Shown: positions 100-40,426 of the stretch, one piece after another
How positions within the stretch are numbered: the first letter of the stretch is position 1
How the letters are laid out: the number at the start of each line of letters is the position of its first letter
Origin: a virus
Length of the DNA: 40,426 bases
Direction: 5' to 3' (one strand)
Virus record (IMG/VR): IMGVR_UViG_3300029815_000032
Notes under the pieces: generated by a model
What the model saw: only the letters and a program-made list of their open reading frames with translations
The model's database searches: none
What the model was told of the DNA's origin: nothing
Program-made: the position numbers and the translations under genes

Positions 100-761
100 T
101 TGCCGGATATATGTATAACATTTCCGAGGATTTTACGACAGACAGTAGATTTAAGGATGGAAGTGATATTTCCTATCCTAAAGGGACAAACGTGTATTAC
201 ACATCCGATGGCTTTTGGGATTGTCTTGCTGGATCCAATGTTACCGGTGTGAAGGGAGAAAACGAGGAGTTTTACCGTAATGGAAATGTCAATATCACGA
301 AAGAAAATGTAGGACTGGGAAACGTACCAAATGTGTCAACGAATAAGCAGACTCCAACCTTTGAAACAGCAAATACGCGCGAAAATATAGAAAGCGGAGA
401 AACACTGGAAACGATCCTAGGTAAACTGGCCAGATTGTATGAGGATTTGGTAACAATAGCATTTTCCGGTGAGTATGGAGATTTAACCGGAAAGCCAACG
501 ATACCGACCAAGGTTAGCCAGTTGACAAATGATTCCGGCTATAAAACCACTGATACCAATACCTGGAAAGCAAATTCGTCATCCAGTGAGGGATATGTAG
601 CATCCGGGAAAAATCAAGTAAATAAAGTCTGGAAAACAGATGCAAATGGTAACCCGGCTTGGAGAGCAGAACAGACCATAAGCCTAGCGACTACGTCCGC
701 AAATGGTTTGATGAGTAAAGAAGACAAAATAGAACTTGAAAAATGCGGATATCCGCACTAA
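3..761 (+). CDS. Tail fibre protein, C-terminal part. Continues the ORF left open at 38851..40426 across the circular junction.
   Basis: The frame is open from base 3 and matches the frame at 40327. Fibre-type motifs GLGNVPNVS and AFSGEYGDLTGKPT are present. Stop at 759..761. Confidence 0.85.
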   Translation, partial: FYKKCEEISKGLGGSLLPMGTITFAGLDTASQVAGYMYNISEDFTTDSRFKDGSDISYPKGTNVYYTSDGFWDCLAGSNVTGVKGENEEFYRNGNVNITKENVGLGNVPNVSTNKQTPTFETANTRENIESGETLETILGKLARLYEDLVTIAFSGEYGDLTGKPTIPTKVSQLTNDSGYKTTDTNTWKANSSSSEGYVASGKNQVNKVWKTDANGNPAWRAEQTISLATTSANGLMSKEDKIELEKCGYPH

Positions 762-777
762 TGAAAGGAGAACCAAT

Positions 778-1392
778 ATGGCATACAAAAAAGTAGGATG
801 GAAAGATTATCCGGATACAACAACACCGGTCAATGCAACTAACCTAAATCAAATGGATGAAGGGCTTGCAGCGGTCGATCAGGAACTGACGACGCAGAAA
901 GAAAATGCTACAGATATGCAGGATACGATAGACCAATTAAATACAGGTTTATCTGAACTAAACTTAAAGATGGAATTAGTCAGATCCCATGTTGGCATGA
1001 TCGTACAATCTACCACCCTTGATACCGAAGCCAAGGTAATCGCCATTTATGGCGGTACATCCTGGTCTAAGGTCGAGGGGAGATTTCTGCTTGGCACTTC
1101 ATCTTCCTATGCTGTCAATTCTATCGGAGGTGAAACTGCGCACACTTTAACAACGGCTGAAATGCCATCACATAATCACGCATCATCAACAAGAAGAGGA
1201 GCAATACCCTGTTGGGATAACAAAGCCAGTTCAACCGGTAAATATTATGGACTTTACGACGGTTCACTGGCGTATCAATCATCATATGCTTACGATATAA
1301 GTGCAACAAGTACAAGTCTTGCAGGTGGAAATGCAGCTCATAACAATATGCCTCCATATAAAGTAGTTTATATCTGGGAGAGAACTGCATAA
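778..1392 (+). CDS. Second tail fibre / receptor-binding protein. Constant N-terminus plus the currently expressed C-terminal cassette V1, which has a phage tail-collar-like domain.
   Basis: ATG 778 follows GAAAGGAG. The C-terminus (GGETAHTLTTAEMPSHNH...GGNAAHNNMPPY) matches the tail-collar motif pattern. The track start at 736 lacks an RBS. Confidence 0.8.
   Translation: MAYKKVGWKDYPDTTTPVNATNLNQMDEGLAAVDQELTTQKENATDMQDTIDQLNTGLSELNLKMELVRSHVGMIVQSTTLDTEAKVIAIYGGTSWSKVEGRFLLGTSSSYAVNSIGGETAHTLTTAEMPSHNHASSTRRGAIPCWDNKASSTGKYYGLYDGSLAYQSSYAYDISATSTSLAGGNAAHNNMPPYKVVYIWERTA
937..974. repeat. Inverted repeat, left copy (IR-L), 38 bp, inside the fibre CDS.
   Basis: ttaaatacaggtttatctgaactaaacttaaagatgga is the exact reverse complement of 1763..1800. 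Identity stops abruptly at both edges. It encodes LNTGLSELNLKM in frame. Confidence 0.95.
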
Positions 1393-1762
1393 TTAAAATG
1401 TTCCGCCATAAATCTTCGCTGGGATCATCACATTTGCATTGCCATTTGCGTTGTCTGCGCTAGTGTCGACGATACCATTTCCAAAATTGATCGCACCGCT
1501 TGAACCAACGCTTACTATACGACGTAAGTTGATTGCATTATATGATGATCCGGTAATGGTATTCTTGGCAACATATCCAGGAATACAACACACCGCAGTG
1601 TATGCTTTGACACACCGAATTAGTCGGCTCCCAGTGTAAGTTGTCGTCGCTTTAAACAGAATATCCACATAGTCATAGTCGCTAAGATCAAGTGTGATGG
1701 TCTGCGTAGCGAAACTTTTAGTGGTATCGCTATTTGACCATAGAAGTTTCTCGCGAGCAGAG
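1393..1762 (-). other. Silent alternative fibre C-terminal cassette V2. It has no start codon or RBS of its own and would be expressed only after inversion of 937..1800.
   Basis: The minus-strand frame reads ...LNTGLSELNLKM|DSAREKLLWSNSD...IYGGTF*. It is in frame with the IR and unrelated to V1. Its stop abuts the V1 stop, forming TAATTA at 1390..1395. Confidence 0.7.
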
Positions 1763-1800
1763 TCCATCTTTAAGTTTAGTTCAGATAAACCTGTATTTAA
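1763..1800. repeat. Inverted repeat, right copy (IR-R), 38 bp.
   Basis: Exact reverse complement of 937..974. Confidence 0.95.
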
Positions 1801-1825
1801 ACTAACAAAAAAGTGGATGAAAAAA

Positions 1826-1877
1826 GTGGGTGCCGGGGGAGAAAAAACCATATATACATGAGACAATATTTATATAG
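1826..1877 (+). promoter_or_regulatory. Late-promoter-like element, copy D, upstream of the lysis operon.
   Basis: GTGGGTGCC-GGGGGAGAAA (G-box 1835..1844), then CATGAGA and an AT-rich TATATA at 1871..1876. Near-identical architecture to copy C at 38781..38830, including the shared ATTACGAAAGGAG RBS region. Confidence 0.5.
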
Positions 1878-26417: not shown

Positions 26418-28232
26418 ATGTTACCACAATTAAATGCATCCAAGGATAATACCACAATGATCAATATCTTTCGCGGTCTGAATAAAGGGCTTGTCATTCA
26501 GGAAGGTGAGTTTTCGGACATGAAAAACATGACAAACGATTATTTTCCTGTCATGGCAAATAGGCGAAGCCGCGGCATCATGAAGACACTGACAAAGCCG
26601 CAGGGAGTGCTGGGCGGTCAGTATCTTGCCTATGTAGATGATAGCAAGTTATATTACGACGATAAGTTTATCTGTGATCTGGATCAGAAAGATGTCGAGA
26701 GAAAAATGGTTATTGTAGGTGCCCTGCTGTGTGTGTTCCCGGATGGAATCATCTACAATACCAATACGGCAGAAATATCCAACATATCGAACAAGACGGA
26801 GACAAGCGGCACGGTTACCATGCGTATGTGCAAGTTGGATGGAACAGAGTTTACGGATCAAAACACACACATCGGAGCAGAAGCACCGGGAGACACAGAA
26901 AAATATCCATACTGGCTTGATACGTCAGGAAGTGTCGTGGTCCTTAAAATGTATTCCAGCACTTATAGTATGTGGACTTCGGTTGCGACGACATACGTCA
27001 AGATCAGTGCAGAGGGCATCGGAAAAGGATTTAAGGCATATGATGCAGTCACTTTCCATGGCATCAAGATCAAAGGATACAACGACTATGACTTTAATCA
27101 GTCGTTGATCGTATATGAAGCAGGGGACGATTATCTGATCGTAGCAGGTCTGATCGACCTTTTATATACGCAGGAGAGCGTTGTGACGGTAGAAAGAAAA
27201 CAGCCGGATCTTGATTATGTGTGTGAACTGGATAACCGTGTATGGGGATGCTCGTCACAAAATCATGAGATCTATGCTTGTAAATTGGGAGATCCAACGA
27301 ACTGGGAATGTTATGCAGGACTTGATTCAGATTCCTATGCGGCAACCGTGGGATCACAGGATGACTTTACCGGATGTTGTGCATATGGTGGATATGTCTA
27401 TTTCTTTAAGGAGAATGGATTTCATAAATTGTATGGAAATAAGCCATCCAACTATGAAATGACATGGAAAGCATGCAGGGGCATACAGAAAGGATGTGCT
27501 AAGTCTATAGCCATTGTAGATGAAGTCCTGTTTTTCAAGGCAAGGGATGCGATCATAACATATGACGGATCCGAAACTACGGTATCGGATGCGCTTGGAA
27601 AAGAGCCATATAAAGAGGCGGTAGCGATCGGGTATAGGGATAAATATTATATATCCATGAAAGACAACGATGATCGGTCGCATGTGTTGGTATATGATCT
27701 GCGCAAGGGTCTATGGTGCCGAGAAGATGACAAGACCTTTGTGTATGCCACCTTTGCGAATAATACAGCACACTTTATTGATACGACCAATACACTGTAT
27801 GCGATCAATGAAGAATCGATTACAGCAAAGTGGTATCCGAATGATAACAGAAAAGGAGATCTTTTCCTGTATCCGAACAGTCAACTATTTCCGGGGAATT
27901 ACATTGCCGGAACGTTAGAAGATATCTTTGAATGGAGCATTACGACCGGAGAGATCGGTCTTGACAATCCGTATCATACCTACCTTAAACGTCTGAATGT
28001 TAGGATGCAACTGGAAGCAAAGTCGAAAGTGACCTTTGAGATAGAATATGACTCTTCTGGAACGTGGGAGCATATCGCCGATTATTATGCTACCAGGATG
28101 CGCAGTTATGAGATACCGATCCGGGTTGCCAGAGCGGATCATCTGAAACTTAGGATATCCGGCAGAGGTTATTTTAGACTGTATTCCATCGCAAAAACAT
28201 TAGAAGTAGGAAGTGGAGGGGATGAATCATGA
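26418..28232 (+). CDS. Putative tail structural protein with beta-propeller-like repeats.
   Basis: TAGGAGAAAG RBS before ATG 26418. Recurrent strands (YVYFFKENGFHKLYG, VLFFKARDAIITYDG, KYYISMKDN..VLVYDLRKGLW, TAHFIDTTNTLYAIN). Confidence 0.45.
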   Translation: MLPQLNASKDNTTMINIFRGLNKGLVIQEGEFSDMKNMTNDYFPVMANRRSRGIMKTLTKPQGVLGGQYLAYVDDSKLYYDDKFICDLDQKDVERKMVIVGALLCVFPDGIIYNTNTAEISNISNKTETSGTVTMRMCKLDGTEFTDQNTHIGAEAPGDTEKYPYWLDTSGSVVVLKMYSSTYSMWTSVATTYVKISAEGIGKGFKAYDAVTFHGIKIKGYNDYDFNQSLIVYEAGDDYLIVAGLIDLLYTQESVVTVERKQPDLDYVCELDNRVWGCSSQNHEIYACKLGDPTNWECYAGLDSDSYAATVGSQDDFTGCCAYGGYVYFFKENGFHKLYGNKPSNYEMTWKACRGIQKGCAKSIAIVDEVLFFKARDAIITYDGSETTVSDALGKEPYKEAVAIGYRDKYYISMKDNDDRSHVLVYDLRKGLWCREDDKTFVYATFANNTAHFIDTTNTLYAINEESITAKWYPNDNRKGDLFLYPNSQLFPGNYIAGTLEDIFEWSITTGEIGLDNPYHTYLKRLNVRMQLEAKSKVTFEIEYDSSGTWEHIADYYATRMRSYEIPIRVARADHLKLRISGRGYFRLYSIAKTLEVGSGGDES

Positions 28233-28411
28233 CAATAGATACACCGGGAGTAAATACAGAAAAGTATTCAAACGAGCAGAACATCCAGATATTAAAGGGT
28301 TATCTGTCTGAAATGGCAGATATCGTCAACATCTATCTGGCAAAGATCGAAGAGATCTCGGCGAAGGTGGATAGCATCGAAACAAAATTACAAGAAAGCG
28401 AGGGCAATTAG
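28229..28411 (+). CDS. Hypothetical small coiled-coil structural protein.
   Basis: ATGA overlap with the upstream gene; GGAGGGG RBS. Confidence 0.5.
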   Translation: MTIDTPGVNTEKYSNEQNIQILKGYLSEMADIVNIYLAKIEEISAKVDSIETKLQESEGN

Positions 28412-28412
28412 A

Positions 28413-29525
28413 ATGGCGACAACGAAAGAATTACAGGATATCCTGAATAATATCAATGCAAACAGACCGGCTGATTATACAGGCAACGTCACGTCGGATG
28501 CCACTAAACAGTATCAGCAGAAATTGAATACACTGGAAGGAAATGCGCCGGCTGATTATCAGTCCAAGTACCAGGACAAGATCAGTGAGGTCATGGATAA
28601 GATCAATAATCGGAAAGATTTTAATTACGACTTTAACGCGGATCCACTCTATCAGAACTATAAGGACCAGTACACAAAATTAGGAAATGAGGCGGCACAG
28701 AATGCAGCAGCAAGTGTATCTGCCTTGACAGGGGGCTATGGTAATTCCTATGCGGCCACGGCGGCATCACAGGCAAATCAGCAGTATCTGACACAGTTAA
28801 ACAATGTGATTCCGGAATTGTATAATGCGGCACTGAACCGATACAAGATGGAATCAGATGATCTGTATAATCAGTTCTCTATGCTGGGGACGCAGGAAGA
28901 CAGAGAGTATGGAAAGTATAGAGACAGTGTCAGTGACTATCAGGCGGACAGAAGTTATTATGCAAACCAACTGGCAAACTCCCAGAACAACGATCAGTGG
29001 AACAATACCTTTAATTATAACAGGTATAGAGACACCGTCAGTGATTGGGAGAACAACCGCAATTACTATACAGACCTGTATAACAATTCTGTATCAAACG
29101 ATCAGTGGCAGGCGGAGTTTGATTACCAGAAGCAGAGAGATGCAGTGTCCGATCAGCAGTGGGCGGCAGAATATGCATTGTCACAGGCGGCACAACAGGC
29201 AAGTGCAAGAAGTTCGGGATCCGGACGGAGTTCAGGATCATCGGGAAGTAGCAGCGTAAAGACTAATTATGTCAATGGTGGAAAAGCATTATCCACAGAC
29301 CAGTTGAACTTCCTGACCCAGGCGGCATATAACAATGCTACCGCAGAAGGAAGCGACAGTGTAGATGCCGTCAGGGCACAGGCAGGCAAAGCATATAACG
29401 AAGGCAAACTGAATGCAAGCCAGTTAAACGCACTTCTGGATAATATCGATTATTACATGTGGATCAAGGCGCAGCAAGATACACAAAAGACACAGGCAGG
29501 ACGAGCACGCAGAAGCGGTAAATAA
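28413..29525 (+). CDS. Hypothetical structural protein with three Y-[KR]-x-RD-x-VSD...NDQW repeats and a Ser/Gly linker.
   Basis: Repeats YGKYRDSVSDYQADRSYY..NDQW, YNRYRDTVSDWENNRNYY..NDQW and YQKQRDAVSDQQW, followed by SSGSGRSSGSSGSSS. Confidence 0.55.
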   Translation: MATTKELQDILNNINANRPADYTGNVTSDATKQYQQKLNTLEGNAPADYQSKYQDKISEVMDKINNRKDFNYDFNADPLYQNYKDQYTKLGNEAAQNAAASVSALTGGYGNSYAATAASQANQQYLTQLNNVIPELYNAALNRYKMESDDLYNQFSMLGTQEDREYGKYRDSVSDYQADRSYYANQLANSQNNDQWNNTFNYNRYRDTVSDWENNRNYYTDLYNNSVSNDQWQAEFDYQKQRDAVSDQQWAAEYALSQAAQQASARSSGSGRSSGSSGSSSVKTNYVNGGKALSTDQLNFLTQAAYNNATAEGSDSVDAVRAQAGKAYNEGKLNASQLNALLDNIDYYMWIKAQQDTQKTQAGRARRSGK

Positions 29526-29536: not shown

Positions 29537-32500
29537 ATGGCAAAAAGAAAAACGTTTGACGAAATCTTACAGGAGCGCTACGGATCAAGTGAGGATGAAA
29601 GCACCGGAGTAAATGATAGATCCTATGATGATATCATGCTCGAGCGCAGATTGAGTGGAAAGGAATCTGATAAATGGACTTCGGATATGACGAAAGCCTT
29701 TAATCAGGGCAACAGATACTCCAAGCAGGCATATGAAGGGGCAGTGGAGATTGCTAAGAACAGCAGAAGAGTAAAAACCGGCGCAGAGCGTTATGGCTTG
29801 TTCTCCGGTGGAAATGAGGAAATGAATAAGGGGATCCTGCATAAGGCATCCAATTATATCAAGTCTAAAATCGATGACGGAAAAAGTGAGATCACAGAGG
29901 AAGAAAGTCTGAAACATGCAAGTAATGTGCTTGCCGGAGTATCAGAGGACAACCAGGCACTTTTGAAAAAGTATGTGGACGCACAGGATTCCAGTAAGAG
30001 CACTCCGTTTATGTATCTGATGAATACGGATTCGCCGGTCATGCAGAAACAGCAGATGAAGGACAGTGAGACCATGGACGCGGTAAAGAAGCAGTTCATG
30101 GAAAATACCGGTGTTGATGAAAAGACCTTTAATAAGATGGTCGCCAATTATGGATATACATACCATGCCGACGAGAACGAAAAACAGAAAAAAAAGTTGC
30201 AGCAGTCATCAGGAGCAACAAAAGCACTTGCCAGTGCCGTAGATGTCTTAGCGTCTCCGGTAACTGGTTTTGTAGCATTGGCGGGTACCGGAAAGAACCA
30301 GGTAGACCCGGAACTGGGAAGGGATAAACACACAGTCTATTCTTCACTGAAAGATTTTTCAGAGAACACGGAAGAGGCTGTGTTAAACGATGCAGAAAAG
30401 ATCGATAATAAGGCACTGCGTACCGCGGCAAAGGGGGCATACGAAATCGGCATGGCGACCGGAAAGAGTGCAATGAGCATGATGACCGGTAGTGAGGCGG
30501 CAAGTGCGCTGGGGCTGACCGGAAAGAGTGCAAGAGCCGTGGCAAATCTGGTATCACTGCCGCAGTTTGGCGCGTCATCTTATGTATCTACACTGGAAGA
30601 GGCACAGGAAAGAGGACTTGATACAAAGGACGCTTACCGGACTGCACTTGTCGCAGGTGGAGCAGAGATGGCGACCGAGGTTATCTCACTGGAAGGCATC
30701 TGGGATATTTTAGAGAGCAAAGGAAAAGTTGCTGCAAAGACTGCGATCGGAAATGTATTGAAGCAGAGTTTCTTTGAGGGATCCGAGGAAGTGGCAAATG
30801 ATCTTATCAATGAGATTGCGGATGGATTGATCAATGGGGACAAGAGTAAGTACGTCCAATCCGTCCGGTATTATATGTCAGATCAGTATGCAAAGGAAAA
30901 TGGACTGGATGCACCACTTTCAGAGGATGAGGCTAAGAAAAAAGCCAATATTGACTTTGCAAAGAGTACAGCGATAGATGGTTTCCTTGGTGCGGCCAGT
31001 GGTGGACTGATGGGTGGTGCGGCAACGGCGATCAATGCCTATGCCAATACAAAAGGCGGTCAGTATTTGAGTGGCAACGAGCAGATCCGGGATGATATTG
31101 TACTGAACAAGGATTCAGAAAATTATATCTCTGATGACAGAGCAGATTATGACAGCGAGGAAGACTACCAGAAAGCCCAGGCTGCCATTGAGCAGTTGAT
31201 TGATGACTCAGGCGAGAAGATTTCCGGTAAAGAGGCTAGAAGTCTGTATCAGAATGTGGCAGAGGCTATCGGAAGTCAGAACTCAAACCGGGCAGAGGCA
31301 AGAGTGCAGCGTGAGGTAGAGACAATCGAGAGCGCACAGACCCCGGATGAACTCGTGAGAGCCACAGAGAGCGTGAAGAATGATGTTCCAGAAGTGCAGC
31401 AGGCTATCGACAATACAAAGGCTAGAATGGTCGCACAGGGAGCGACACAGGCAGACTTTGACAATGTAGTTACACCTACCAGAGCATACGAGATGGCAAA
31501 AAGAGGACAGGTTTCTGAAAGTGATCTTGCATCCATGTCTACCGATGCAAGACGTGCGGCAGAAGCAGGAATTTCAGAGAGTGTAAGTGCGGATATTAAG
31601 AACGTGACGAAGTTCGATGCATCTACAGTCCTTGTAAAGGAAAATGGCAAGGCAAAGCAGACCAACATCACAGGAGAAGTCACCAAGAGCGGAGATCAGT
31701 ATTATCTGACGACCAAGAAGGGAGCAAAGGTCGAACTGTCAGAGGATATTTTAAGTGGAACGACCAAAGCAAACGGAGATAATACAAAGGGAAAACTTCT
31801 CATGTATGGTAATAGCCATGCAGCAGGCATTATTTCATTGGAAGACCCGGAACTCATGACGATTGCCTTGCAGACCAAGATCAATCAGCCAAGCGTACCG
31901 TCCACAAGTATTGTAAAGGCTGTGAAAACCTTTAATACATTAGGGCGTAGTGGGGTGTCCTTTGAATCTATTGTAAACGATAAAAAGCAGAAGTTTATGG
32001 TTGATGCGATCGGGGAAAAGGTACTGCGACAGGCATATGATCTGGGAGCAAAAGAAGGTGCGCTGGATGAAGAGAAGATGGCAAACCCTACCACGAAAAA
32101 AGGAAATGGTAAGGTTTCTTTTGCGAGCCGGGAAGCAGAGGGCGCATATGAAAAACTGGATCATGCAAATAAGACTTTTTTGGATAAGTTTGCTGAAAAG
32201 ACAGGAGTAGATTTTGAAATCTTTACCGATGATGCGGATGCAGAGGGAACGGTCAGAGGACAGTATGTGCCGGAAGAAGGAAAGATCCGTCTGAATGTGG
32301 CAGAAGATACAGATATCTTAGAAGTTGCCATGCATGAAGGTATAGGCGAGTTCTTAAAGGCACATAATGCCAAAGGCTATGCAGAGATCACAGAGACGAT
32401 TTTAGATTACTATGCAGAGAATAATGCGGATGCATTGGCAAAGCGTATTGAGGACTACAAGAGAGCCTACAGCGATGAGGAAGGAAAGTCTACCAGAGGA

Positions 32501-35500
32501 AGTGCAGATGAACTTGTAAACGATGTGCTGGCAGAAATCTTTTCGGATGATGCCGGTATTGAGAAACTGGGAACATGGCTTTTTGATAATGGTAAGGAAA
32601 AAGAAGCAAAGACGATCAAGGACGTGCTGATTGATTTTATCAACCAGATGAAGTCATGGATTGCAGACATCAAGGCGCAGGGTGGACTTTCTGCTGCGGA
32701 GCGCAGCAAACTTTCCATGACCGAAAAGGATATGGATGCATTGCAGAATAGGATCCTAAAGGCAATGGATGAGGCTATTGCGAACAGGGATAGCAGAGCC
32801 GAGGGCGAGACTGCGGAGCAGAGCATTAGAAATTCTGTGAAGGTTGATGCCAATGGAAAGCAGTATGTCGAGATCGACGAGGATATTATCAAGGGTATTA
32901 CTGGAAGTAAAAATATCAAGTCTGCTGTGCGTGCCTATATAAAAGAAAATTATCCTTCGATTGATATGATGGGATTTAAGTTAGGAATAAATGCACAATC
33001 GAGAAATGAATTTGTAAACTCCAAGACATCGCAGTATATGCAAAACAAATTAAAGAGATTTTTTATAGACAAAATGCGTATGGCAGGAAATCTGGAGGAA
33101 ATTGTAAATGTAGGAGACGGATATACATGGGAAGATATCAAGCACTCCAGGAAAGACAGACTAATTGGATTTGTCAGAGGAAATGTGCAAATTAGAGTAG
33201 GAAGCAATGATTATATTGCAGATATTGTATTGGCTGATGATAAGACCAAAGGATTGATATTCTACGATATTGTAAACATGAAGTCTACAGCAATAAAAGA
33301 AGCACCTACAGAGCGTACACATGAAAATCATGCGGCTCAGGTCGCAGGTGCTTCTACAGATAGTATATCCCAAAATAAAAAAAATGCAACCGAAATCGCT
33401 GAAAAAGGTAGAAATTCTGTAAAAGTTGAAGCAGAAACTCATGCCAGGGACGCAGAAAGGTTCTTTGGGACTACAAGGAACTGGTCTTATGCAGGTTATC
33501 TTGATATCAATGGAAAACTCTTAGATTTTTCTGATGGACAAAGATACCGAGTGCAGGATCATAGAGAAATAAGTGAGATTTTAGATTTACCAGAAGATGC
33601 AGGATATTCAGACGGCCTTATTCAGTTTATGGCAGAAGGTAATATCAGAATGCAGAAATATGGCATTGATATATCTGTCACACCTAATGAAGCACAGAAA
33701 GGTCGCCTGAGAGACTTCTTTAATCATCTTGAAGGAGAGGTTACTGTAGACTTTAGTGCTCTTAATGGGGATTCTGTGGGAAGTGCAGATTATACAGAGG
33801 GCACATCTGCAACGAGAATTCTAAATGATATTGATACATTCTTTGTGACTGGGGAAGTACCAGAAGGAACGTATAATGGAATCAATGAGTTTAGATATTC
33901 AAAGAAGGTAGACTCAGAAGGCAGAAAATTAACCGAAGCACAGCAGGAATACTTCAAGAACTCAAAGGCTGTAGATGAAGATGGAAATCTTATGACAGTG
34001 TACCATGGAACAGTCAGAGAGTTTTATGAGTTTGACCGGGAGCAAGGAAATCCAGAGGGAAACTTTGGTACAGGAATCTATTTTACTAACAATGAGGCTG
34101 ATGTTGACGAAAATTATGCGAACGAAAAGGGATCAGATCTGACAAATAAAATAGAACTTGAAGCAGACATGCTGGAGGGTACTGATGAATATGAGGATAT
34201 GGATCATGACGAGATTGTAGAAGCATTGAGAAAGAAATATATCACATCAGATGAGCCTATAACCATGGAGTGCTACTTAAACATAGAAAATCCGTGTTAT
34301 GTAGATTCTACTATGCTTTTAGACAATGTCGAAGACTATATGGGAGAAACCATTGAAGACTTTGCAGACGAAGATGAATATTATGAAGCACTGGATGAAA
34401 AAGCGGCAGAGATTGTAGATGATATTGTCGGAGAGATTAGTAGTAACATTGAATTATATAGCGGTACAGATGAAGTAGCAGCAATACTGGGAGAGGCACT
34501 GATGGATGGTGGTATTGCCGTTGAGGATCTGCGCGCGAGATTAGATGAATTATACCTAGAGGATGAAGAAGGGAGAATTGTATCAAGTGAGGTTTTGCGT
34601 CAGATTATAGAATCACTAGGATATGATGGAATTATTGATAGCACAGTGTCTGATAAATTTAAAAATATGAACTTATCAGAAGACATAACGCATTACATTG
34701 TATTCAATTCTAATCAGGCAAAATTTGTGTCGAATGAAAATCCGACAACCAGTGGGGATGTACGTTATTCCAGAAAAGTAAAAGATGCGCGTAAGTCCAT
34801 CAAAGAATACGGCATCGTAAGCCCATATCATGACACACTGAATGAGGCAAACGTAGTATCTGCCATTATGGGAAAAATGAATGAAGCCTTGGATGGAGTG
34901 AGTGTTGATCTTAATGGTGTTATGGATGTGACTAAGAGTATCATAAAGAAATATGATGCTGACATCAGCACAAATGATCTGGCAGGAGCAATCTGGCAAA
35001 CGTTCAGTTACATGAACAATAACCAGATGGAGACAGATTACCAGGGAATGATGGACTACCTGTTGAATATCGGTGACGAGGTCATTGCGACGTCGCAATT
35101 AAAAAATGCGGATCAGCAGGCAGTGTATGATGAGGTCAGAAAGCAACTGCGTACACATGCTATCCATTTAACCAAAGCCGACCGTGCGGAACTCGTTCAT
35201 AGATACGGATCATGGAATGAGGCTTTTGGGGCAATCCAGCAAGCCGGGATAAAGTTAGATAATAACGGCATCAGGATAGATTCTGCATATGGAGATATCC
35301 GAAATGAGATCATGAAATTATCCGGTGTGCAGATGTCGGAAGAGACAACGGCGGCAGATCAGATTGTAAATATCATTGATACGGTATCATCACTTGAACC
35401 GGAGGTAAGCACCTTTGAGGGCGCAAATGACCTGGATAAAAGTCTGATGGTTGCGTCTGACATCATCGATGAATACTATACGCGTGCAGTAAAGGAAATG

Positions 35501-38500
35501 AGTAACAATATTGTCGAGGGGACGGATGCCGGAAAAAAGGCGGTCAAGGAGGCGGTAGATAAACAGACCGAGAAGTTAAGAAAGGAGATGCAGCAGTATA
35601 AGAAAACGATCAGAGCATCTTATCAGAACCAGGTAACGAGGTATAAGACGGAATTGGAGAGGACGCAAAAAGACTTGCGTGCTGTGCAGAATAATTTGAA
35701 AAATTGGAAGCCGGTACCGGAAACACAAATCTTAAATCAGGCAGAACTGGATGCAAAGGCAGAGCAGATGGCCACAAAGGCACTGACAGATTATAAGATG
35801 GCGCAGGAACGGAGTAAACAGATAGATAACATCAAGAGAACCGGACACCGCATGATCCGGTGGCTGGATGCGCCGACGGATAAACAGCATGTTCCGGAGT
35901 TTTTGCAAAGACCACTATCTGAATTTTTGAGCAGTGTTGACTTTCTGCCGTTAAGAGCAAAGGAAACATCTAAGAATACCTTAGACTGGAGGCATCAGAT
36001 GATGGTATTAAAGGATGTGATCACAAGACTGAAAGAGAGTGACCCGGAGATAGATAGTGACGGCTATGCACTATCACAGGTTCTTGTTGTGGATGAATTG
36101 GTAGAAAAGATGCAGAATATCCTTGACAATAATCAGGATGTGAATATGAAGGTATCGAAACTTCCGGCAGGAGATCTGAAGGAGATGTCAGAGGTGCTAA
36201 GTTCACTTAGTGCTGCCATTAACCATATGAACACGACATATGCAAATAGCAGATATGCCGGCATTGGAGATCTTGCAAGAGCATCCATCAATGAAATGCA
36301 GGAGAGAAAACCAACCAAGACAGAAAGAACAAAGGTTGGTAACGCGGCATTTAAATTCTTTAATTTGGATGAGATCGAACCGCTGACCTTTTTCGAGGGA
36401 TTGGGATCTGCATCTGCAAGTGTTTATGAAGAATTACGCCACGGATTTGACATCAGAACCAATCATATCCGGGAGACGGCAGATTTCTTTGAAAATAAGA
36501 AAAAGGAACTGGGGATCTCCGATAAGGAAATGGCAGAGTGGGGAAAAGAGAAACACGAGTTTCATTTTCCGGGTGGAGATATTACCATGACAACGCCACA
36601 GATCATGTCCTTGTTAGAGACGGTCAACAGAAAGCAGGGCAAGCCTCATGTGGAAGCCGGAGGTATAAAAATAGCAGATACAGAGGTAAAGGTAGGAAAG
36701 GTCAAAAAGATCGTGCATATGACAAAGGCGGTACATATTGACGAGGCACAGTATGACACGATCATTTCTGAACTGACACCAAAGCAGAGAGCGATGGCAA
36801 ACGAATTGCAGCACTATATGGCTACAGAGTGTGCGGACTGGGGTAACCGGGTATCAAGAGAAATGTATGGATACAAGAAGTTCACGGAAAAGGACTACTT
36901 CCCATTAAGGACGGATTCAACAACCAGAGAAACAAAGCCAAGTGATGACCAGGCACCGTCCTACTATACCATCAAGAACAGGTCATTTACGAAGCAGATC
37001 ACACCGCATGCCGCAAATGCCGTTGTGATCGATGACATCTTTGATGTGTTTACCAGACATGTCGTACAGATGGCAGAGTATGACGGATATACTATGCCGA
37101 TTGCGGATGCCATGCGATGGTACAATTATCAGGAAAAAGAAATCAACACGATAAGAAATCAGGATCTGTTGGGAGAAATTGCGGGAGATACCACGAATGC
37201 AAGGAATGAGATCAAGAACAGTGTGAAGCAGAATATGGATCGCGTCCTTGGAAAGAATGCTGGAGCATATTTCCAACAGTTCATTAAAGACATCAATGGA
37301 GATTATGCAGGTACCGGCGGTACACCAGATCTGTCAACATACCTGATGTCATCATTTAAGGCACAGGCGGTAGGTGCAAACATAAGAGTAATTGTGCAAC
37401 AGCCGACAGCCATTGTACGTGCGGCAGATCGGATTGAAGCCAAGTATTTATTGCAGGCGCAGACATCCCTGCCAAAAGCAGTAGAGTATGCGAAAAAGTC
37501 GCAGGATAACTCTGCTATATCCTATTGGAAAGCGCAGGGATATTATGAAACACTCATAGGTAAGTCCTTGAAGCAGATCATTACCGGAGAGGGAACGGTA
37601 AAGGAAAAAATTACAGATGCCATGGGAAAAGGTGCCGGAATTGCAGATGACCTGACATGGGGTGTCATGTATCGTGCAGCAGAACTAAAGGTCAAGGATC
37701 AAAAACCGAATCTGAAATATGATTCAGAAGAATTTACCAAAAAGACGGTAGAGATCTTCGAGGACATCATCGATCATACCCAGGTAGTTGATACGATTTT
37801 TCATAAGTCACAATGGATGAGAAATCAAGGGCTGGGATATAGAGCAACATCTGCATTTATGGCAGAGCCGACAAAGACCTATAACATGTTTTACCGGGCA
37901 TATCAGGATTGCTTGAGAAGTGGTAACAAAAAAGAGATGGTAGACCATGCCGGAAGAACAGCAATGATCTTTCTTGTGGAGCAGGCGCTCAATGCAGCAG
38001 TTACAGGATTTATTGACGCATGGCGAGATGATGACAAGGACGAGGGTATTATAGGTTTCTTGCAGAGTGAGGCAGATCATACTAAGGAGAATTTCTTTGG
38101 AAATCTCTATGTGTGGAACCTGTTTCCGGTCATAAAGGAAGTACAGAACTTTATAGATGGGTATGATGCAACAGAATATACGACCGAAGGACTTGCAACA
38201 GCAGTTGATACTATCAGCGAATTGTATAAGGTTGTCATAGGACAGAGCAATAAGACATTTTATGGTGTGTCCTATCTGATCGCTCAGGGAATATCACAGT
38301 TAAGCGGTATCCCTATATCAAGCGCATTGCGCGAGGTGAAATCGTTATATAATACCTTAAACGGTATCTGGGGTGGTACGGATTGGTATAAATCAAAGAC
38401 TACACAGCAATCCGCAGAGAAAAGGAAAAGGCAGACAAACCTAAACAATGCTATCCAGAAGAAAGATCTTGAAGATAGCAAGAATGCCATGAATGAGATA

Positions 38501-38743
38501 TATCAGAATGCGTACGACAATGGCATTGCAAATGGAAAAAGCGAGAATGAGGCAGAGAGTGATGCGTGGTCTAGTGTCAGAAGCGCTTTAAAGAAATCGT
38601 ACCAGGAGCAGGAAGACAGATCCACGGCAACGATCAACCGCTATGTAACACTCATGCGAAAGACAAAGAAAAAGGTCAGTGGTAAGAATGAATTTAAAGC
38701 CGTAACGGAAAAAGATGCAAGGGACACGGTCAAAGGTTGGTAG
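29537..38743 (+). CDS. Giant (3068 aa) polyvalent virion/ejection-type protein with an internal effector-domain cassette including an ART-PolyVal-like ADP-ribosyltransferase domain.
   Basis: GGGAGAAG RBS and an uninterrupted ORF. ...LMTVYHGTVREFYEFD...GTGIYFTNNEADVDENYA...ITHYIVFNSNQAKFVSNENPTTSGDVRYSRK fits the ART-PolyVal pattern. A degenerate metallopeptidase-like VAMHEGIGEF is present. Recurrent R-[NY]-S-x-K-V linkers. Confidence 0.8.
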   Translation: MAKRKTFDEILQERYGSSEDESTGVNDRSYDDIMLERRLSGKESDKWTSDMTKAFNQGNRYSKQAYEGAVEIAKNSRRVKTGAERYGLFSGGNEEMNKGILHKASNYIKSKIDDGKSEITEEESLKHASNVLAGVSEDNQALLKKYVDAQDSSKSTPFMYLMNTDSPVMQKQQMKDSETMDAVKKQFMENTGVDEKTFNKMVANYGYTYHADENEKQKKKLQQSSGATKALASAVDVLASPVTGFVALAGTGKNQVDPELGRDKHTVYSSLKDFSENTEEAVLNDAEKIDNKALRTAAKGAYEIGMATGKSAMSMMTGSEAASALGLTGKSARAVANLVSLPQFGASSYVSTLEEAQERGLDTKDAYRTALVAGGAEMATEVISLEGIWDILESKGKVAAKTAIGNVLKQSFFEGSEEVANDLINEIADGLINGDKSKYVQSVRYYMSDQYAKENGLDAPLSEDEAKKKANIDFAKSTAIDGFLGAASGGLMGGAATAINAYANTKGGQYLSGNEQIRDDIVLNKDSENYISDDRADYDSEEDYQKAQAAIEQLIDDSGEKISGKEARSLYQNVAEAIGSQNSNRAEARVQREVETIESAQTPDELVRATESVKNDVPEVQQAIDNTKARMVAQGATQADFDNVVTPTRAYEMAKRGQVSESDLASMSTDARRAAEAGISESVSADIKNVTKFDASTVLVKENGKAKQTNITGEVTKSGDQYYLTTKKGAKVELSEDILSGTTKANGDNTKGKLLMYGNSHAAGIISLEDPELMTIALQTKINQPSVPSTSIVKAVKTFNTLGRSGVSFESIVNDKKQKFMVDAIGEKVLRQAYDLGAKEGALDEEKMANPTTKKGNGKVSFASREAEGAYEKLDHANKTFLDKFAEKTGVDFEIFTDDADAEGTVRGQYVPEEGKIRLNVAEDTDILEVAMHEGIGEFLKAHNAKGYAEITETILDYYAENNADALAKRIEDYKRAYSDEEGKSTRGSADELVNDVLAEIFSDDAGIEKLGTWLFDNGKEKEAKTIKDVLIDFINQMKSWIADIKAQGGLSAAERSKLSMTEKDMDALQNRILKAMDEAIANRDSRAEGETAEQSIRNSVKVDANGKQYVEIDEDIIKGITGSKNIKSAVRAYIKENYPSIDMMGFKLGINAQSRNEFVNSKTSQYMQNKLKRFFIDKMRMAGNLEEIVNVGDGYTWEDIKHSRKDRLIGFVRGNVQIRVGSNDYIADIVLADDKTKGLIFYDIVNMKSTAIKEAPTERTHENHAAQVAGASTDSISQNKKNATEIAEKGRNSVKVEAETHARDAERFFGTTRNWSYAGYLDINGKLLDFSDGQRYRVQDHREISEILDLPEDAGYSDGLIQFMAEGNIRMQKYGIDISVTPNEAQKGRLRDFFNHLEGEVTVDFSALNGDSVGSADYTEGTSATRILNDIDTFFVTGEVPEGTYNGINEFRYSKKVDSEGRKLTEAQQEYFKNSKAVDEDGNLMTVYHGTVREFYEFDREQGNPEGNFGTGIYFTNNEADVDENYANEKGSDLTNKIELEADMLEGTDEYEDMDHDEIVEALRKKYITSDEPITMECYLNIENPCYVDSTMLLDNVEDYMGETIEDFADEDEYYEALDEKAAEIVDDIVGEISSNIELYSGTDEVAAILGEALMDGGIAVEDLRARLDELYLEDEEGRIVSSEVLRQIIESLGYDGIIDSTVSDKFKNMNLSEDITHYIVFNSNQAKFVSNENPTTSGDVRYSRKVKDARKSIKEYGIVSPYHDTLNEANVVSAIMGKMNEALDGVSVDLNGVMDVTKSIIKKYDADISTNDLAGAIWQTFSYMNNNQMETDYQGMMDYLLNIGDEVIATSQLKNADQQAVYDEVRKQLRTHAIHLTKADRAELVHRYGSWNEAFGAIQQAGIKLDNNGIRIDSAYGDIRNEIMKLSGVQMSEETTAADQIVNIIDTVSSLEPEVSTFEGANDLDKSLMVASDIIDEYYTRAVKEMSNNIVEGTDAGKKAVKEAVDKQTEKLRKEMQQYKKTIRASYQNQVTRYKTELERTQKDLRAVQNNLKNWKPVPETQILNQAELDAKAEQMATKALTDYKMAQERSKQIDNIKRTGHRMIRWLDAPTDKQHVPEFLQRPLSEFLSSVDFLPLRAKETSKNTLDWRHQMMVLKDVITRLKESDPEIDSDGYALSQVLVVDELVEKMQNILDNNQDVNMKVSKLPAGDLKEMSEVLSSLSAAINHMNTTYANSRYAGIGDLARASINEMQERKPTKTERTKVGNAAFKFFNLDEIEPLTFFEGLGSASASVYEELRHGFDIRTNHIRETADFFENKKKELGISDKEMAEWGKEKHEFHFPGGDITMTTPQIMSLLETVNRKQGKPHVEAGGIKIADTEVKVGKVKKIVHMTKAVHIDEAQYDTIISELTPKQRAMANELQHYMATECADWGNRVSREMYGYKKFTEKDYFPLRTDSTTRETKPSDDQAPSYYTIKNRSFTKQITPHAANAVVIDDIFDVFTRHVVQMAEYDGYTMPIADAMRWYNYQEKEINTIRNQDLLGEIAGDTTNARNEIKNSVKQNMDRVLGKNAGAYFQQFIKDINGDYAGTGGTPDLSTYLMSSFKAQAVGANIRVIVQQPTAIVRAADRIEAKYLLQAQTSLPKAVEYAKKSQDNSAISYWKAQGYYETLIGKSLKQIITGEGTVKEKITDAMGKGAGIADDLTWGVMYRAAELKVKDQKPNLKYDSEEFTKKTVEIFEDIIDHTQVVDTIFHKSQWMRNQGLGYRATSAFMAEPTKTYNMFYRAYQDCLRSGNKKEMVDHAGRTAMIFLVEQALNAAVTGFIDAWRDDDKDEGIIGFLQSEADHTKENFFGNLYVWNLFPVIKEVQNFIDGYDATEYTTEGLATAVDTISELYKVVIGQSNKTFYGVSYLIAQGISQLSGIPISSALREVKSLYNTLNGIWGGTDWYKSKTTQQSAEKRKRQTNLNNAIQKKDLEDSKNAMNEIYQNAYDNGIANGKSENEAESDAWSSVRSALKKSYQEQEDRSTATINRYVTLMRKTKKKVSGKNEFKAVTEKDARDTVKGW

Positions 38744-38850: not shown

Positions 38851-40426
38851 ATGTTACGGAAATTAAAAGCAGTAGACTACCTGGCAATAGATGTTGCGTC
38901 TCATAAGAAACTTTCGATCTGTGTCATTAAAAATGATACTGTCGGACGTACTATTGTCTGCTCCGTTATGTCGCAGGGAAAGTCCGTCGATTTTACAGAC
39001 TTGTTGTTTGCGGAAATATTCATTAAGAAGCCGGATGGAAATGAAGCAGATCAGGGATGCATTATTGATGGAAATACCATTGCATACACCTTGAGAAGTT
39101 CAGATATTGCGGTTGTCGGAACAAATGTGGCGCAGTTCTTTTTGACATTTAAGGACGGAACCACACTCACGACACCAACATTTGATATTGAGGTCCATGA
39201 AGCGGTCTTATCGCAGAACGCACAGAAATCTTTTAATGAATATACTTCACTGACCCAGCAGATCGTCCTGGCAACAGAGAAAGCGGAGGACGCGGCAGAA
39301 TCCGCAAAGAATGCGGAGACATCCAACCAAAACGCACAGAAGGCATTGACCAGTGTAGAGACGGCAGAGCAGAACGTGATGCGTATGCAGGAGGATGTGA
39401 CGGCATCGGAAAGCCATGCAAAGGAAAGTGAAGTCAATGCCAAGGCAAGTGAGGAGCAGGCTAAAATCTATGCCGATCATGCAGCAGAATCTGAAACCAA
39501 TGCCAAACAATATGAGCAGAGTGTAGTTGCTAAGGCGACGGATATTCTGAATGCAGAGAGCCATGCCAAGGAGTATGCCAACAGCGCGGAACAGTCTGCA
39601 AATACGGCATCTGAAAAGGCACAGGCGGCTACGCTATCGGCAGAGGCTAGTTTGGCATCCGAGACAAAGGCGAAAGAGTCCGCGGATCAGGCAAATACAT
39701 CTGAAACCAATGCATCAACGTATGCCGACAGTGCGCGCTCCAGTTCCCAAGCATCCGCTCTATCCGAAGCCAATGCAGGCAAATTAGAAAAGAATGCAAA
39801 GGCATCGGAGAACAATGCGAAAACATCTGAAACCAATGCGAAAGCGTCAGAACAGGCGGCAGCGAAATCCAAGGATAGCGCCAAGTTATCCGCCGATCAT
39901 GCAGCAGTATCAGAAACGAATGCAAAAAATAGTGAATTGTCTTCGGCAGAGTCAGCAGACAATGCACAGAATAGTGAAACCTCTGCTAGTGCATCTGCAC
40001 TTGTGGCAAAGCAGTCGGAAACGAATGCCGAGACCTTTAAGACCAATGCATCCAATAGTGCATCAGCGGCCGCAACAAGTGAAACCAATGCCAAGGCAAG
40101 TGAACAGAATGCAAGCGCATATCTTGCGAGTGCAAAAACCTACGCGTCATCAGCAAGCACCAATGCCGACAAGGCAAGCAATAGTGCCACGAACGCTAAG
40201 GAAAGCGAAACGAATGCAGGTACATTTGCAACCAGTGCAAAAGAATCGGAATCAAACGCAAGTACATATGCGGCTACTGCAAAGTCCGATTCGGACAAGG
40301 CTCAAAATTATATGAGTTTGGCAGAGACTTTTTATAAAAAGTGCGAGGAAATTTCAAAGGGACTGGGAGGATCATTACTTCCGATGGGAACCATTACTTT
40401 TGCGGGACTAGATACAGCATCGCAAG
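38851..40426 (+). CDS. Tail fibre protein, N-terminal and shaft part. The ORF stays open at the window end and continues at 3..761; about 745 aa in total on the circular map.
   Basis: GAAAGGAG RBS before ATG 38851. BppU-N-like N-terminal domain (DTVGRTIVCSV...KKPDGNEADQGCIIDGNTIAYTL...TTPTFDIEV). Long Ala/Ser/Glu/Asn/Lys repeat shaft (SETNAK units). Not in the ORF track because it has no stop in the window. Confidence 0.85.
   Translation, partial: MLRKLKAVDYLAIDVASHKKLSICVIKNDTVGRTIVCSVMSQGKSVDFTDLLFAEIFIKKPDGNEADQGCIIDGNTIAYTLRSSDIAVVGTNVAQFFLTFKDGTTLTTPTFDIEVHEAVLSQNAQKSFNEYTSLTQQIVLATEKAEDAAESAKNAETSNQNAQKALTSVETAEQNVMRMQEDVTASESHAKESEVNAKASEEQAKIYADHAAESETNAKQYEQSVVAKATDILNAESHAKEYANSAEQSANTASEKAQAATLSAEASLASETKAKESADQANTSETNASTYADSARSSSQASALSEANAGKLEKNAKASENNAKTSETNAKASEQAAAKSKDSAKLSADHAAVSETNAKNSELSSAESADNAQNSETSASASALVAKQSETNAETFKTNASNSASAAATSETNAKASEQNASAYLASAKTYASSASTNADKASNSATNAKESETNAGTFATSAKESESNASTYAATAKSDSDKAQNYMSLAETFYKKCEEISKGLGGSLLPMGTITFAGLDTASQ
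40328..40426. repeat. Terminal direct repeat, copy 2 (identical to 1..99).
   Basis: Exact 99-bp identity with the window start. Confidence 0.95.

Follow-up and report, generated by a model that had tools for sequence, protein, structure and literature searches.

A giant phage polyvalent protein as a candidate virion-borne carrier with an exchangeable payload cassette

Why would a phage devote almost a quarter of its DNA to a single gene? The question is raised by one unbroken open reading frame at positions 29537-38743 of the stretch of viral DNA analysed here (the window, 40,426 nucleotides in all), which encodes a protein of 3068 amino acids and has its stop codon within those coordinates. 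All nucleotide coordinates in this text refer to the plus strand (+), on which the gene and every feature described below lie. The frame takes up 9207 of the 40,426 nucleotides (22.8% of the window), and the window ends overlap by 99 nucleotides, which gives a circle of 40,327 nucleotides. Given 3068 open codons at 43% GC, the frame is no product of chance. It starts 12 nucleotides past the preceding gene, with a GGGAG Shine-Dalgarno sequence 6-7 nucleotides upstream of the start. A cluster representative of 32 member sequences, P0001, also has 3068 residues and is 98-99% identical to the giant protein; its gene occurs in two further assemblies, ERZ27244741, on a contig of 182 kb, and ERZ28618229. 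Because these assemblies are independent, mis-assembly, which the original prediction had named as one outcome that would undo it, is excluded, and its description of one uninterrupted 3068-residue frame filling 23% of the genome is upheld. Every motif that it had quoted is likewise found in the protein: MHEGIGEF at residue 932, KHSRKD...FYDIVNMK within residues ~1210-1255, VYHGT at 1488, GIYFT at 1513, HYIVF at 1719 and DVRYSRKV at 1741-1748.

The gene lies between structural genes and fibres, just as had been claimed. On its 5' side come genes for the portal, the Prp protease, a scaffold-like protein and the capsid protein, then three conserved virion-module genes, so that the late operon reads capsid gene, p120, p604, p370, giant gene, fibre. 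The upstream virion-module block (26418..29525) comprises p604 (26418-28232), which matches PHROG 511 'internal virion protein', a 60-aa ORF between p604 and p370, and the conserved gene p370 (28413-29525) immediately 5' of the giant gene; PDB searches with p604 and p370 were uninformative. Homologues of these genes also stand upstream of the giant gene in related prophage loci (p370 in 49 of 80, p604 in 41 of 80 and p120 in 31 of 80). On the 3' side lies a BppU_N fibre/receptor-binding gene of 745 codons, whose 5' part occupies 38851..40426 and which runs past the window end to position 761. The giant gene is co-oriented with its neighbours and tightly spaced inside this late structural operon.

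The phage itself is temperate, since it encodes a serine integrase and also exists as a prophage copy, and is of the short-tailed type, with a P22-like portal and an N4-like capsid protein. A scan of genome contigs for the host yielded no close relative, and since the best identity was 34%, we can assign the host no more firmly than as probably Clostridia. The whole is apparently an intact temperate phage of gut Clostridia. Clear LQxF/A sites for the Prp protease are present in both the scaffold-like protein and the capsid protein. The idea that Prp also processes the giant protein was considered and dropped, as its only resemblances to such sites are loose (FDEILQERYG near the start of the protein, at the N terminus, and SLPQFGAS at residue 340) and are unconserved in the family.

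What the protein might do is best approached through its layout, which is tripartite: a conserved N-terminal part, a variable cassette of low GC content and a C-terminal core that is again conserved and for the most part helical. The conserved N-terminal region (29882..32827, residues ~116-1097) was delimited by a BLAST coverage map against 120 homologues, and relatives with 27-32% identity align across residues 116-1100. Within it is a Gly/Ala/Ser-rich module (30434..31066, residues ~300-510; G+A+S = 36%) with the pattern GAxA...ERG...EGSEE...INGD, which is common to ~82 of the 120 homologues and is preceded, just on its 5' side, by a hydrophobic stretch at residues 230-248. The N- and C-terminal parts had been described as lacking any recognisable domain. 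Neither the Gly/Ala-rich module nor the C-terminal core belongs to a Pfam family. The two parts are not filler, however, since nowhere else is conservation within the family as high.

The N-terminal region ends in a zincin-like module (31874..32827, residues 780-1097) that is present in 247 of the 272 family proteins. Its motif H933-E934-G-I-G-E938 (32333-32350) departs from both HExxH and HExxxH in that a Glu stands where the second His would be (HEGIGE). We nevertheless regard the HE pair as a true zincin-type position, because relatives bear HExxH in that very column (155 of the 247, the remainder having mostly HExxE or HExxGE). In alignment A4 the H, the E and a downstream E are invariant; the latter, E992, lies with the nearly invariant D996 in the sequence DELVND (32507-32524) and would fit the downstream Glu, a candidate third ligand, of gluzincin-type enzymes. 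The original prediction of a degenerate metallopeptidase-like motif was thus right about the motif and its missing second His, but 'degenerate' is too strong a word for a site at which a conserved Glu substitutes and a downstream Glu is invariant. Profile searches with the module found no significant match in Pfam or the PDB, and single family members gave sub-threshold matches to DUF6782 (E 0.013), SprT-like (0.02) and M78 (0.03).

The middle of the protein, residues 1098-1748, is of a different character. Third-position GC content in this cassette is 26-32%, compared with 47% in the flanks, and the protein contains four matches to the pattern R[NY]S[VKR]KV, all of them at module borders. We term these J1 (RNSVKV, 32828..32845, residues 1098-1103), J2 (33410-33427), J3 (RYSKKV, 33893-33910) and J4 (RYSRKV, 34763-34780). 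A natural experiment is provided by the relative P0002, which is 99-100% identical to the giant protein over residues 1-1200, 88% over 1201-1300 and 95-100% over 1801-3068, but just 17-43% identical over residues 1301-1700. The breakpoints of homology fall exactly at J2 and J4 (RNSVKV and RYSRKV), and P0002 carries a different cassette, one with two ARTs, swapped at two junction motifs. In another relative, P0007, a PBECR5 domain is inserted directly after the position equivalent to residue 1305. In its exact form the junction motif is common among the nearer relatives only, and across the family as a whole its enrichment in the middle region is no more than ~5-10-fold. In the polyvalent-protein literature examined we found no description of either the motif or the cassette swap.

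Three modules make up the cassette. The first, M1 (32828..33409, residues 1098-1291), had been proposed to be nuclease-like, and this assignment was not confirmed. HMMs for PBECR, MuF_C and nuclease domains found no match in residues 1060-1298, even at E 10, and the true PBECR5 of P0007 adjoins the M1-equivalent module without covering it. M1 is probably a divergent LPD3-like domain, judging from a homologue, P0122, that is 65% identical over residues 1144-1302 of the giant protein and that matches LPD3 (PF18798) over the residues equivalent to M1 with E 6e-4 and 20.4 bits, below the cut-off of 27; M1 of the giant protein itself has no LPD3 HMM match. The BECR fold of such RNases is characterised by a helix and a four-stranded antiparallel sheet with catalytic residues. 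An AlphaFold2 model of M1 (pLDDT ~70) consists of helices followed by a four-stranded antiparallel sheet or meander, for which Foldseek found weak NTF2, cystatin and monellin matches in the PDB (best E 0.026) and, among the top 50, no barnase, RelE, EndoU or colicin match.

The second module, M2 (33410..33892, residues 1292-1452), is an unnamed alpha/beta domain, modelled with a pLDDT of 80-96 and marked by the motifs FGTT..AGY..DG..LDFS..DHR..GNIR (alignment A3). Without a Pfam or PDB match, it occurs also in other polyvalent proteins and in the short proteins P0121 and P0123-P0125. A separate protein search with residues 1060-1460 returned six proteins, which were useful for M1 and M2 and did not widen their families. 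For M1 and M2 together, sequence and profile searches of the PDB gave nothing significant. Domain-wise Foldseek, a check proposed with the original prediction, was run against the PDB on these two modules and on the C-terminal core with the same outcome.

The third module, M3 (33893..34780, residues 1453-1748), is the ART-PolyVal ADP-ribosyltransferase that had been predicted. It matches Pfam PF18760 with E 5e-11 and 43.9 bits (gathering score 31.2), and an acidic insert of ~170 residues divides the match into two stretches. The catalytic triad of this group is defined by H on strand 1, Y on strand 2 and D on strand 5 (PMC5512222), and its counterparts here are H1490 in VYHGT (34004-34006), Y1515 in GIYFT (34079-34081) and D1697 in GYDGIID (34625-34627), the last placed on strand 5 by alignment rather than by structure. 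All three fall in conserved columns when the ART modules of the family are aligned. Sequence and profile searches of the PDB with this module gave nothing significant.

Beyond the cassette extends the conserved C-terminal core of about 1200 residues (34904..38431, residues ~1790-2965), of which residues 2100-2950 are common to 119 of 120 homologues. It matches PHROG 22978, of unknown function, with E 4e-176, as well as 3556 clusters of a 50%-identity library. The proteins that bear it at their C-terminal end are several thousand residues long and come mostly from Clostridia prophages; relatives of the core are carried by Enterocloster genomes, too. Its AlphaFold2 model is mostly helical (pLDDT 73.6, pTM 0.65), and there is a single hydrophobic stretch at residues 2808-2826. 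A Foldseek search of the PDB, which includes the T7 and P22 ejection proteins, reached a best E of 0.29, and phmmer with the whole protein found no PDB match. The 89 matches in BFVD are parts of viral proteins, about a dozen of which have polyvalent-type names; one is a 'structural protein' of Tenacibaculum phage Gundel_1, a phage on which a literature search gave nothing.

Taken as a whole, the giant protein is an uncharacterised, typical phage polyvalent protein of a kind already described, and the original prediction, which invoked this concept (Iyer et al. 2017), is supported by the ART-PolyVal domain, the virion gene block and modules of the same repertoire in relatives. Disparate domains (ART-PolyVal, zincin-like and two further globular modules) are combined in one phage polypeptide, and this polypeptide is encoded among late genes that run from the capsid side to the fibre. 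At the position of the cassette, relatives carry PBECR5, MuF_C, LPD3, LPD23, PBECR3, an SNF2 helicase with a methylase-type domain, or an M23 peptidase. Both MuF_C and M23 typically occur in proteins that are carried by virions. By our count from the homologue table, roughly 30 of its 120 relatives have the former, and Pfam detects no MuF or MuF_C domain in the giant protein.

How, then, might such a protein serve the phage? We think it probable that it is a capsid-packaged, ejected carrier with an exchangeable host-modifying payload. We infer its packaging, ejection, cleavage, enzymatic activity and targets; it is the position of the gene and the domains fused in relatives that favour this explanation. 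The carrier would consist of the N-terminal part, with its Gly/Ala-rich and zincin-like modules, and the helical C-terminal core of about 1200 residues. It would be made late alongside the virion proteins, be incorporated into the capsid and leave through the tail together with the DNA. The payload would be residues 1098-1748, that is, the LPD3-like domain, the unnamed alpha/beta domain and the H-Y-D ADP-ribosyltransferase. After entry, perhaps once cleavage at R[NY]SxKV had freed its modules, it would be expected to modify host proteins or nucleic acids such that defences are blunted or the cell is taken over. Recombination at the same junctions would allow phages to trade payloads. Several results count against this picture: the core shows no detectable homology to N4 gp50, to phi24B gp47, to large late proteins of API480 and Page or to any PDB structure, the zincin motif of the giant protein is without its second His, and the exact junction motif has a limited spread in the family.

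A broader version of this idea is more tentative, and we put it forward as a possibility that we would not bet on. In phages of gut Clostridia, the N-terminal part and C-terminal core might be the hallmark of a very large unnamed family of delivery chassis carried in the capsid, in which effector modules are strung between R[YN]SxKV-type junctions that act both as recombination joints and as cleavage sites after ejection and the His-to-Glu zincin variant acts as the processing enzyme, the whole being a virion-delivered analogue of polymorphic toxins.

Other explanations must be weighed against the carrier with its payload. The giant protein could be primarily structural, an ejection conduit or tail extension whose N- and C-terminal parts form a channel that spans the Gram-positive wall and membrane, in the manner of T7 gp14-16 or P22 gp7/16/20, with the middle modules acting locally in wall or membrane remodelling or in adhesion. 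The gene order of T7 is well established, and the giant gene occupies the place of gp14-16. Conservation of the N- and C-terminal parts, which are apparently indispensable, fits such a function, as do the largely helical core, the hydrophobic stretches noted above in both parts, and the M23 peptidoglycan peptidase of some relatives. A comparable role has been put forward by the authors of a study on phage phi24B, who propose that its polyvalent protein gp47 is an ejection protein (bioRxiv 10.64898/2026.04.10.717836). However, the lack of a fold match between the core model and solved ejection proteins speaks against a mainly structural function, and the ART, PBECR RNase and SNF2-methylase modules have intracellular substrates. 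We judge this reading unlikely as the primary one, although a conduit is compatible with, and not exclusive of, a carrier that delivers a payload.

Less likely still is a function outside the virion, in which the prophage, or the phage late in infection, would express the protein as a toxin or competition factor. An HYD2-type ART toxin could, for instance, be of advantage to the lysogen or mediate abortive infection or superinfection exclusion. Polymorphic toxin systems do indeed have ARTs of the HYD2 clade, a toxin function in (pseudo)lysogeny has been suggested (PMC9503650), and the phage, having a serine integrase and an integrated copy as prophage, is temperate. Against this stand the co-oriented, tightly spaced position of the gene in the late structural operon and the synteny with virion genes that is kept in dozens of prophages. 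Moreover, the giant gene has neither an adjacent immunity or antitoxin candidate nor a secretion signal nor secretion-system genes, and a carrier of ~2400 residues would be pointless for a cytoplasmic toxin.

The virion RNA polymerase of phage N4, gp50, invites a further comparison. This protein of 3500 residues is packaged and injected, its N-terminal part serving injection, its middle part being the enzyme and its C-terminal part serving encapsidation (PMC5512222). The giant protein shares the tripartite plan and the position after the portal, capsid and virion genes, and the capsid protein and portal of our phage are distant homologues of N4 gp56 (E 3e-8) and gp59 (E 2e-4). One might therefore picture a diverged gp50 homologue whose polymerase was replaced by other modules. 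We consider this very improbable, as the family HMM has no match to gp50 and a comparison of the core with the C-terminal regions of nine Schitoviridae virion RNA polymerases gave an hhalign probability of 0.25%, so the candidate relationship was rejected. No sequence or profile similarity to gp50 was detected in the carrier parts, and the giant protein contains no RNA polymerase, neither by a Pfam match nor by a DxDGD-type motif. That motif belongs to two-barrel polymerases, which one would expect to meet in crAss-like phages. Finally, there is next to no chance that the frame is an artefact, whether a mis-assembled chimera or several genes joined by sequencing errors, since only its unusual length speaks for this, whereas P0001 recurs in other assemblies and more than 100 full-length relatives of 2400-4800 residues have the same layout.

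It is predicted that phages rely on polyvalent proteins as a main means of delivering counter-defence enzymes, ready-made, to the cell that they enter, yet almost none of these proteins have been studied experimentally. The giant protein offers a clean test case, with delimited carrier and payload, a natural swap and an ART whose triad is intact. Furthermore, the two thirds of the protein that seemed unrecognisable represent a large conserved family without annotation, which should be useful in tracing the phage lineage as a marker and is worth structural study. These findings refine the existing concept of polyvalent proteins and leave it unchanged.

Among known systems, the closest are the polyvalent proteins described previously (PMC5512222), with which our protein shares its huge size, an H-Y-D (Tox-ART-HYD2-like) ART, LPD-type domains, a zincin-like module and a position among virion genes, its relatives drawing PBECR, MuF_C and SNF2 domains from the same repertoire. 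It differs from them in that the C-terminal core and the Gly/Ala-rich N-terminal module lack a Pfam family and in that the zincin motif is HExxxE, not HExxH. Prophages phi1 and phi4 of Clostridium (Enterocloster) clostridioforme LM41 contain 8-kb ORFs that were noted without analysis (PMC11318856). From their description these are alike in taking up ~20% of the genome, in lying at the end of the structural region and in belonging to prophages of gut Clostridia, and weak similarity to polyvalent-protein domains is reported for them (PMC11318856).

Experimental precedent comes from the Stx phage phi24B, whose 2811-residue gp47 proved abundant in virions by proteomics (bioRxiv 10.64898/2026.04.10.717836). 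Like our protein, it is a polyvalent protein of giant size, and its phage, too, is temperate and short-tailed; unlike ours, it has LPD5, LPD1, LPD38 and MuF-C domains and is located at the far end of the genome, and no homology between the two is detectable. Nor was homology found to API480 gp16 and Page gp20, the large late proteins of two relatives that are in culture. In phage PTXU04, a polyvalent protein is required for phage fitness (PMC11879866).

With T4 Alt, an ADP-ribosyltransferase, and P1 DarB, the common ground is the principle of capsid-carried, injected enzymes that modify host targets or protect DNA. DarB is also similar in domain content to the SNF2-plus-methylase relatives of the giant protein. 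The carriers, however, are not homologous, and Alt is a small single-domain protein of the R-S-E ART clade. A final parallel is with polymorphic toxins such as CdiA and Rhs, in which a conserved delivery part bears a variable toxin cassette, C-terminal or internal, and a short conserved pre-toxin motif marks where payloads are swapped by recombination. Although the giant protein differs in its predicted delivery by the virion, in having no immunity genes and in carrying several modules in series, it shares with these toxins the same basic plan of a conserved delivery part and a payload cassette bounded by a short motif.

On the best-supported reading, the giant protein is a carrier that travels in the virion and bears a payload open to exchange. 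Its gene was originally predicted to be one uninterrupted ORF, and this holds: the 3068-aa frame at 29537-38743 (+ strand) takes up 22.8% of the window. A GGGAG ribosome-binding site precedes it, and only 12 nt separate it from the preceding gene. A mis-assembled frame can be ruled out because a 98-99% identical protein (P0001, a cluster representative with 32 member sequences) occurs in two further assemblies, in one case as part of a prophage on a 182-kb bacterial contig, and the continuity of the ORF is thereby supported. The first 99 nt of the window recur at 40328-40426, a terminal overlap that indicates a circularly assembled genome with a true length of 40327 nt. Every peptide motif quoted in the original prediction was likewise found in its place.

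Among the gene products of the phage are a large terminase, a P22-like portal (PF16510), a Prp-type cysteine protease (PF04327, E 7e-17; 23419-23730), a scaffold-like protein (23781-24731) and an N4-gp56-type capsid protein (PHROG 1357; 24755-25744). The capsid gene is followed by the conserved virion-module genes p120, p604 and p370, then by the giant gene and a gene for a 745-aa BppU_N fibre; a holin and an amidase are encoded as well. Tail-tube, sheath and tape-measure genes are absent from the phage genome and a large serine integrase is encoded at 6040-7410 (- strand), which makes this a temperate, short-tailed phage. Homology to an integrated prophage copy (L001) extends as far as window position 5971, leaving 70 nt to the integrase gene, and this places the attachment site (attP) at about 5971; beyond this site, L001 continues into a bacterial two-component system. 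By capsid protein (about 35% identity), the closest cultured phages are API480 and SV21, which infect Paenibacillus, and the Bacillus Pagevirus group. Elsewhere in the genome, a 465-aa protein (12501-13898) matches ParB-like partition/nuclease PHROGs and, more weakly, a DNA methyltransferase PHROG; it is possibly one of the ParB-methyltransferases known from anti-restriction settings.

Just past the fibre gene, a perfect 38-nt inverted repeat (937-974 and 1763-1800) flanks a 788-nt segment (975-1762) in which two convergent ORFs, 736..1392 (+) and 1393..1866 (-), have their 3' parts. This segment is the sole non-matching part of about 20 kb held in common with L001, and its start aligns with L001 at 85% when inverted. 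A protein with a Gp10_C domain was identified in L001, and its window counterpart, 1393..1866, lies in the segment that differs. The arrangement looks like an invertible tail-fibre-tip cassette, resembling the Mu G segment or a shufflon.

BLAST comparison with 120 homologues divides the giant protein into three conservation zones: a conserved N part (aa ~116-1097), a poorly shared middle (aa ~1100-1750) and a C-terminal core (aa ~1800-2950), of which aa 2100-2950 are found in 119 of the 120. The core matches no Pfam family, and its sole PHROG match is PHROG 22978 (function unknown; E 4e-176). An AlphaFold model of the core (25 sequences; pLDDT 73.6, pTM 0.65) consists largely of helices, with beta structure confined to two small regions, and has no meaningful match in the PDB (best E 0.29). 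In a library of predicted viral structures, the same model has 89 matches at E <= 0.001; the targets listed are parts of viral proteins, most without a name, although about 12 carry polyvalent-type names ('PolyVal ADP-ribosyltransferase', 'MuF C-terminal domain-containing', 'large polyvalent protein-associated domain') and 8 more are named 'Nuclease' or 'Type I restriction enzyme'.

The core family is large. A full HMMER scan of 1.84 billion cluster representatives returned 3556 proteins at E <= 0.001, of which 2649 reach E <= 1e-30. In those listed the match is C-terminal and lengths are mostly about 2400-4500 aa; shorter entries may be fragments. Core relatives occur in 185 species-representative genomes, nearly all from Clostridia (Lachnospiraceae, Oscillospiraceae, Ruminococcaceae, Butyrivibrio, Enterocloster, Lacrimispora and Flavonifractor), and none in these genomes exceeds 34% identity. 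Given this spread, and the presence just upstream of homologues of p370, p604 and p120 in 49, 41 and 31 of 80 core-bearing loci, respectively, the giant gene belongs permanently to the virion gene block in a large phage lineage and is not an occasional passenger.

Two modules lie in the N part: one rich in Gly, Ala and Ser (aa 300-510), the other zincin-like (aa 780-1097) and present in 247 of the 272 family proteins compared. Its motif is HExxH in 155 of the 247 and mostly HExxE or HExxGE in the remainder; H933, E934 and the downstream E992 are invariant in our alignment, and D996 is nearly so. The module had been described as having a degenerate metallopeptidase-like motif that lacks the second His. 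That residue is indeed absent, but its column is occupied by Glu938, a conserved potential metal ligand, and for this reason inactivity cannot be taken for granted. Searches for significant Pfam or PDB profile matches to this module were negative, and the putative zincin assignment relies on the motif pattern together with the divergent MPTase clades described in polyvalent proteins (Iyer et al. 2017). Only two strongly hydrophobic 19-residue stretches occur in the giant protein, one per carrier part (aa 230-248, nt 30224-30280; aa 2808-2826, nt 37958-38014), and these are possible membrane-active helices.

Four matches to R[NY]S[VKR]KV (aa 1098, 1292, 1453 and 1743) bound three modules within the middle region. 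The predicted ART-PolyVal domain is confirmed as the third module, M3 (aa 1453-1748; 43.9 bits against a cut-off of 31.2). An acidic insert some 170 aa long interrupts it, and H1490, Y1515 and D1697 fall in the conserved columns YHG[TS], GxxxF/YF[TS] and GYDG[VI]I, corresponding to the H-Y-D configuration given for this clade (Iyer et al. 2017; PMC5512222). The peptide originally called nuclease-like lies in M1 (aa 1098-1291), for which we found no PBECR or other Pfam match up to E 10. The AlphaFold model of M1 (helices, then a four-stranded antiparallel sheet; pLDDT ~70) gave only weak NTF2, cystatin and monellin-type Foldseek matches (E >= 0.026) and no BECR nuclease, and in the homologue P0007 a true PBECR5 domain sits directly after the M1 equivalent, not on it. 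The nuclease assignment is therefore unsupported. The homologue P0122 (65% identical) has a sub-threshold LPD3 match over the same residues (E 6e-4), and LPD3-like seems the better label. For M2 (aa 1292-1452) modelling gave an alpha/beta domain with good confidence (pLDDT 80-96), and FGTT, DHR and GNIR motifs are conserved in it; it also occurs in short proteins and other polyvalent proteins, and no known relative was found by Pfam, PDB profile search or Foldseek against the PDB.

Exchange of this cassette (aa 1098-1748) is documented by the homologue P0002, which has two ART modules where the query has M2 and the long ART. In 100-residue windows, the two proteins are 99-100% identical over aa 1-1200 (98% in one window), 88% over aa 1201-1300, 17-43% over aa 1301-1700, 65% over aa 1701-1800 and 95-100% over aa 1801-3068; in the alignment, identity drops at the RNSVKV junction and returns exactly at RYSRKV. 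The same left border is used in P0006 and P0007, where PBECR5 is inserted, along with MuF_C in P0007. The cassette DNA (32828-34780) is compositionally foreign, with 36-39% GC and 26-32% GC3 compared with 44-46% and 47% in the carrier parts of the ORF. Payload domains among the listed relatives include ART, PBECR5, PBECR3, MuF_C, LPD3, LPD23, SNF2 helicase with methylase-type domains, and M23 peptidase. Family-wide, the density of a looser junction pattern in the middle region is about 10 times that in the N part; many distant members lack this form and carry variants such as D[IV]R[YF]S or FSIRE.

The carrier would be packaged in the virion and bring its exchangeable payload along. We propose packaging on indirect grounds: the position inside the late structural operon is conserved, relatives fuse MuF_C and M23, typical of virion-borne proteins, and a DarB-like helicase-methylase set, and there are parallels in N4 and in the unrelated gp47 of phi24B. 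Once delivered, M3 might exert ART activity on host targets. The modules may be cut apart at their junctions, by the zincin-like module or otherwise. The N-terminal motifs of the capsid protein (MNKNRRLMNLQMF/ANS) and the scaffold-like protein (MEKLFDLQLF/AEGG) resemble the site at which Prp cleaves ribosomal protein L27 and its counterpart in staphylococcal phage 80alpha; no conserved site of this kind was found in the giant protein.

As originally proposed, the giant protein fits the polyvalent-protein concept (Iyer et al. 2017; PMC5512222), and it agrees with a published observation of 8-kb ORFs in prophages of Clostridium clostridioforme LM41 (PMC11318856). To these we add the borders between carrier and cassette, the size of an unannotated core family and the range of its hosts, a His-to-Glu zincin variant, a negative result on the supposed nuclease, a junction motif at which a swap is documented, and the difference in composition between cassette and carrier. 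The protein is mainly useful as a well-defined experimental entry point.

Among characterized systems, phi24B virions contain the 2811-aa polyvalent protein gp47, detected by proteomics (bioRxiv 10.64898/2026.04.10.717836), and a polyvalent protein is needed for fitness in phage PTXU04 (PMC11879866). In the 3500-aa gp50 of N4, the N part serves injection and the C part encapsidation (PMC5512222). Neither gp50 nor gp47, nor the large late proteins that API480 and Page encode, show detectable homology to the carrier parts. The N4 parallel is thus one of organisation and not of demonstrated ancestry: both phages follow the same plan, a capsid module and then a giant protein, and our capsid protein and portal are distantly homologous to N4 gp56 and gp59. 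In API480 (gp16, 1631 aa; 12564-17459 of its locus) and Page (gp20, 1679 aa; 19786-24825 of its locus), a very large last structural gene precedes the lysis genes, and the two products are unrelated in sequence to the giant protein and to each other. These nearest cultured relatives by capsid protein likewise close the structural block with one very large gene.
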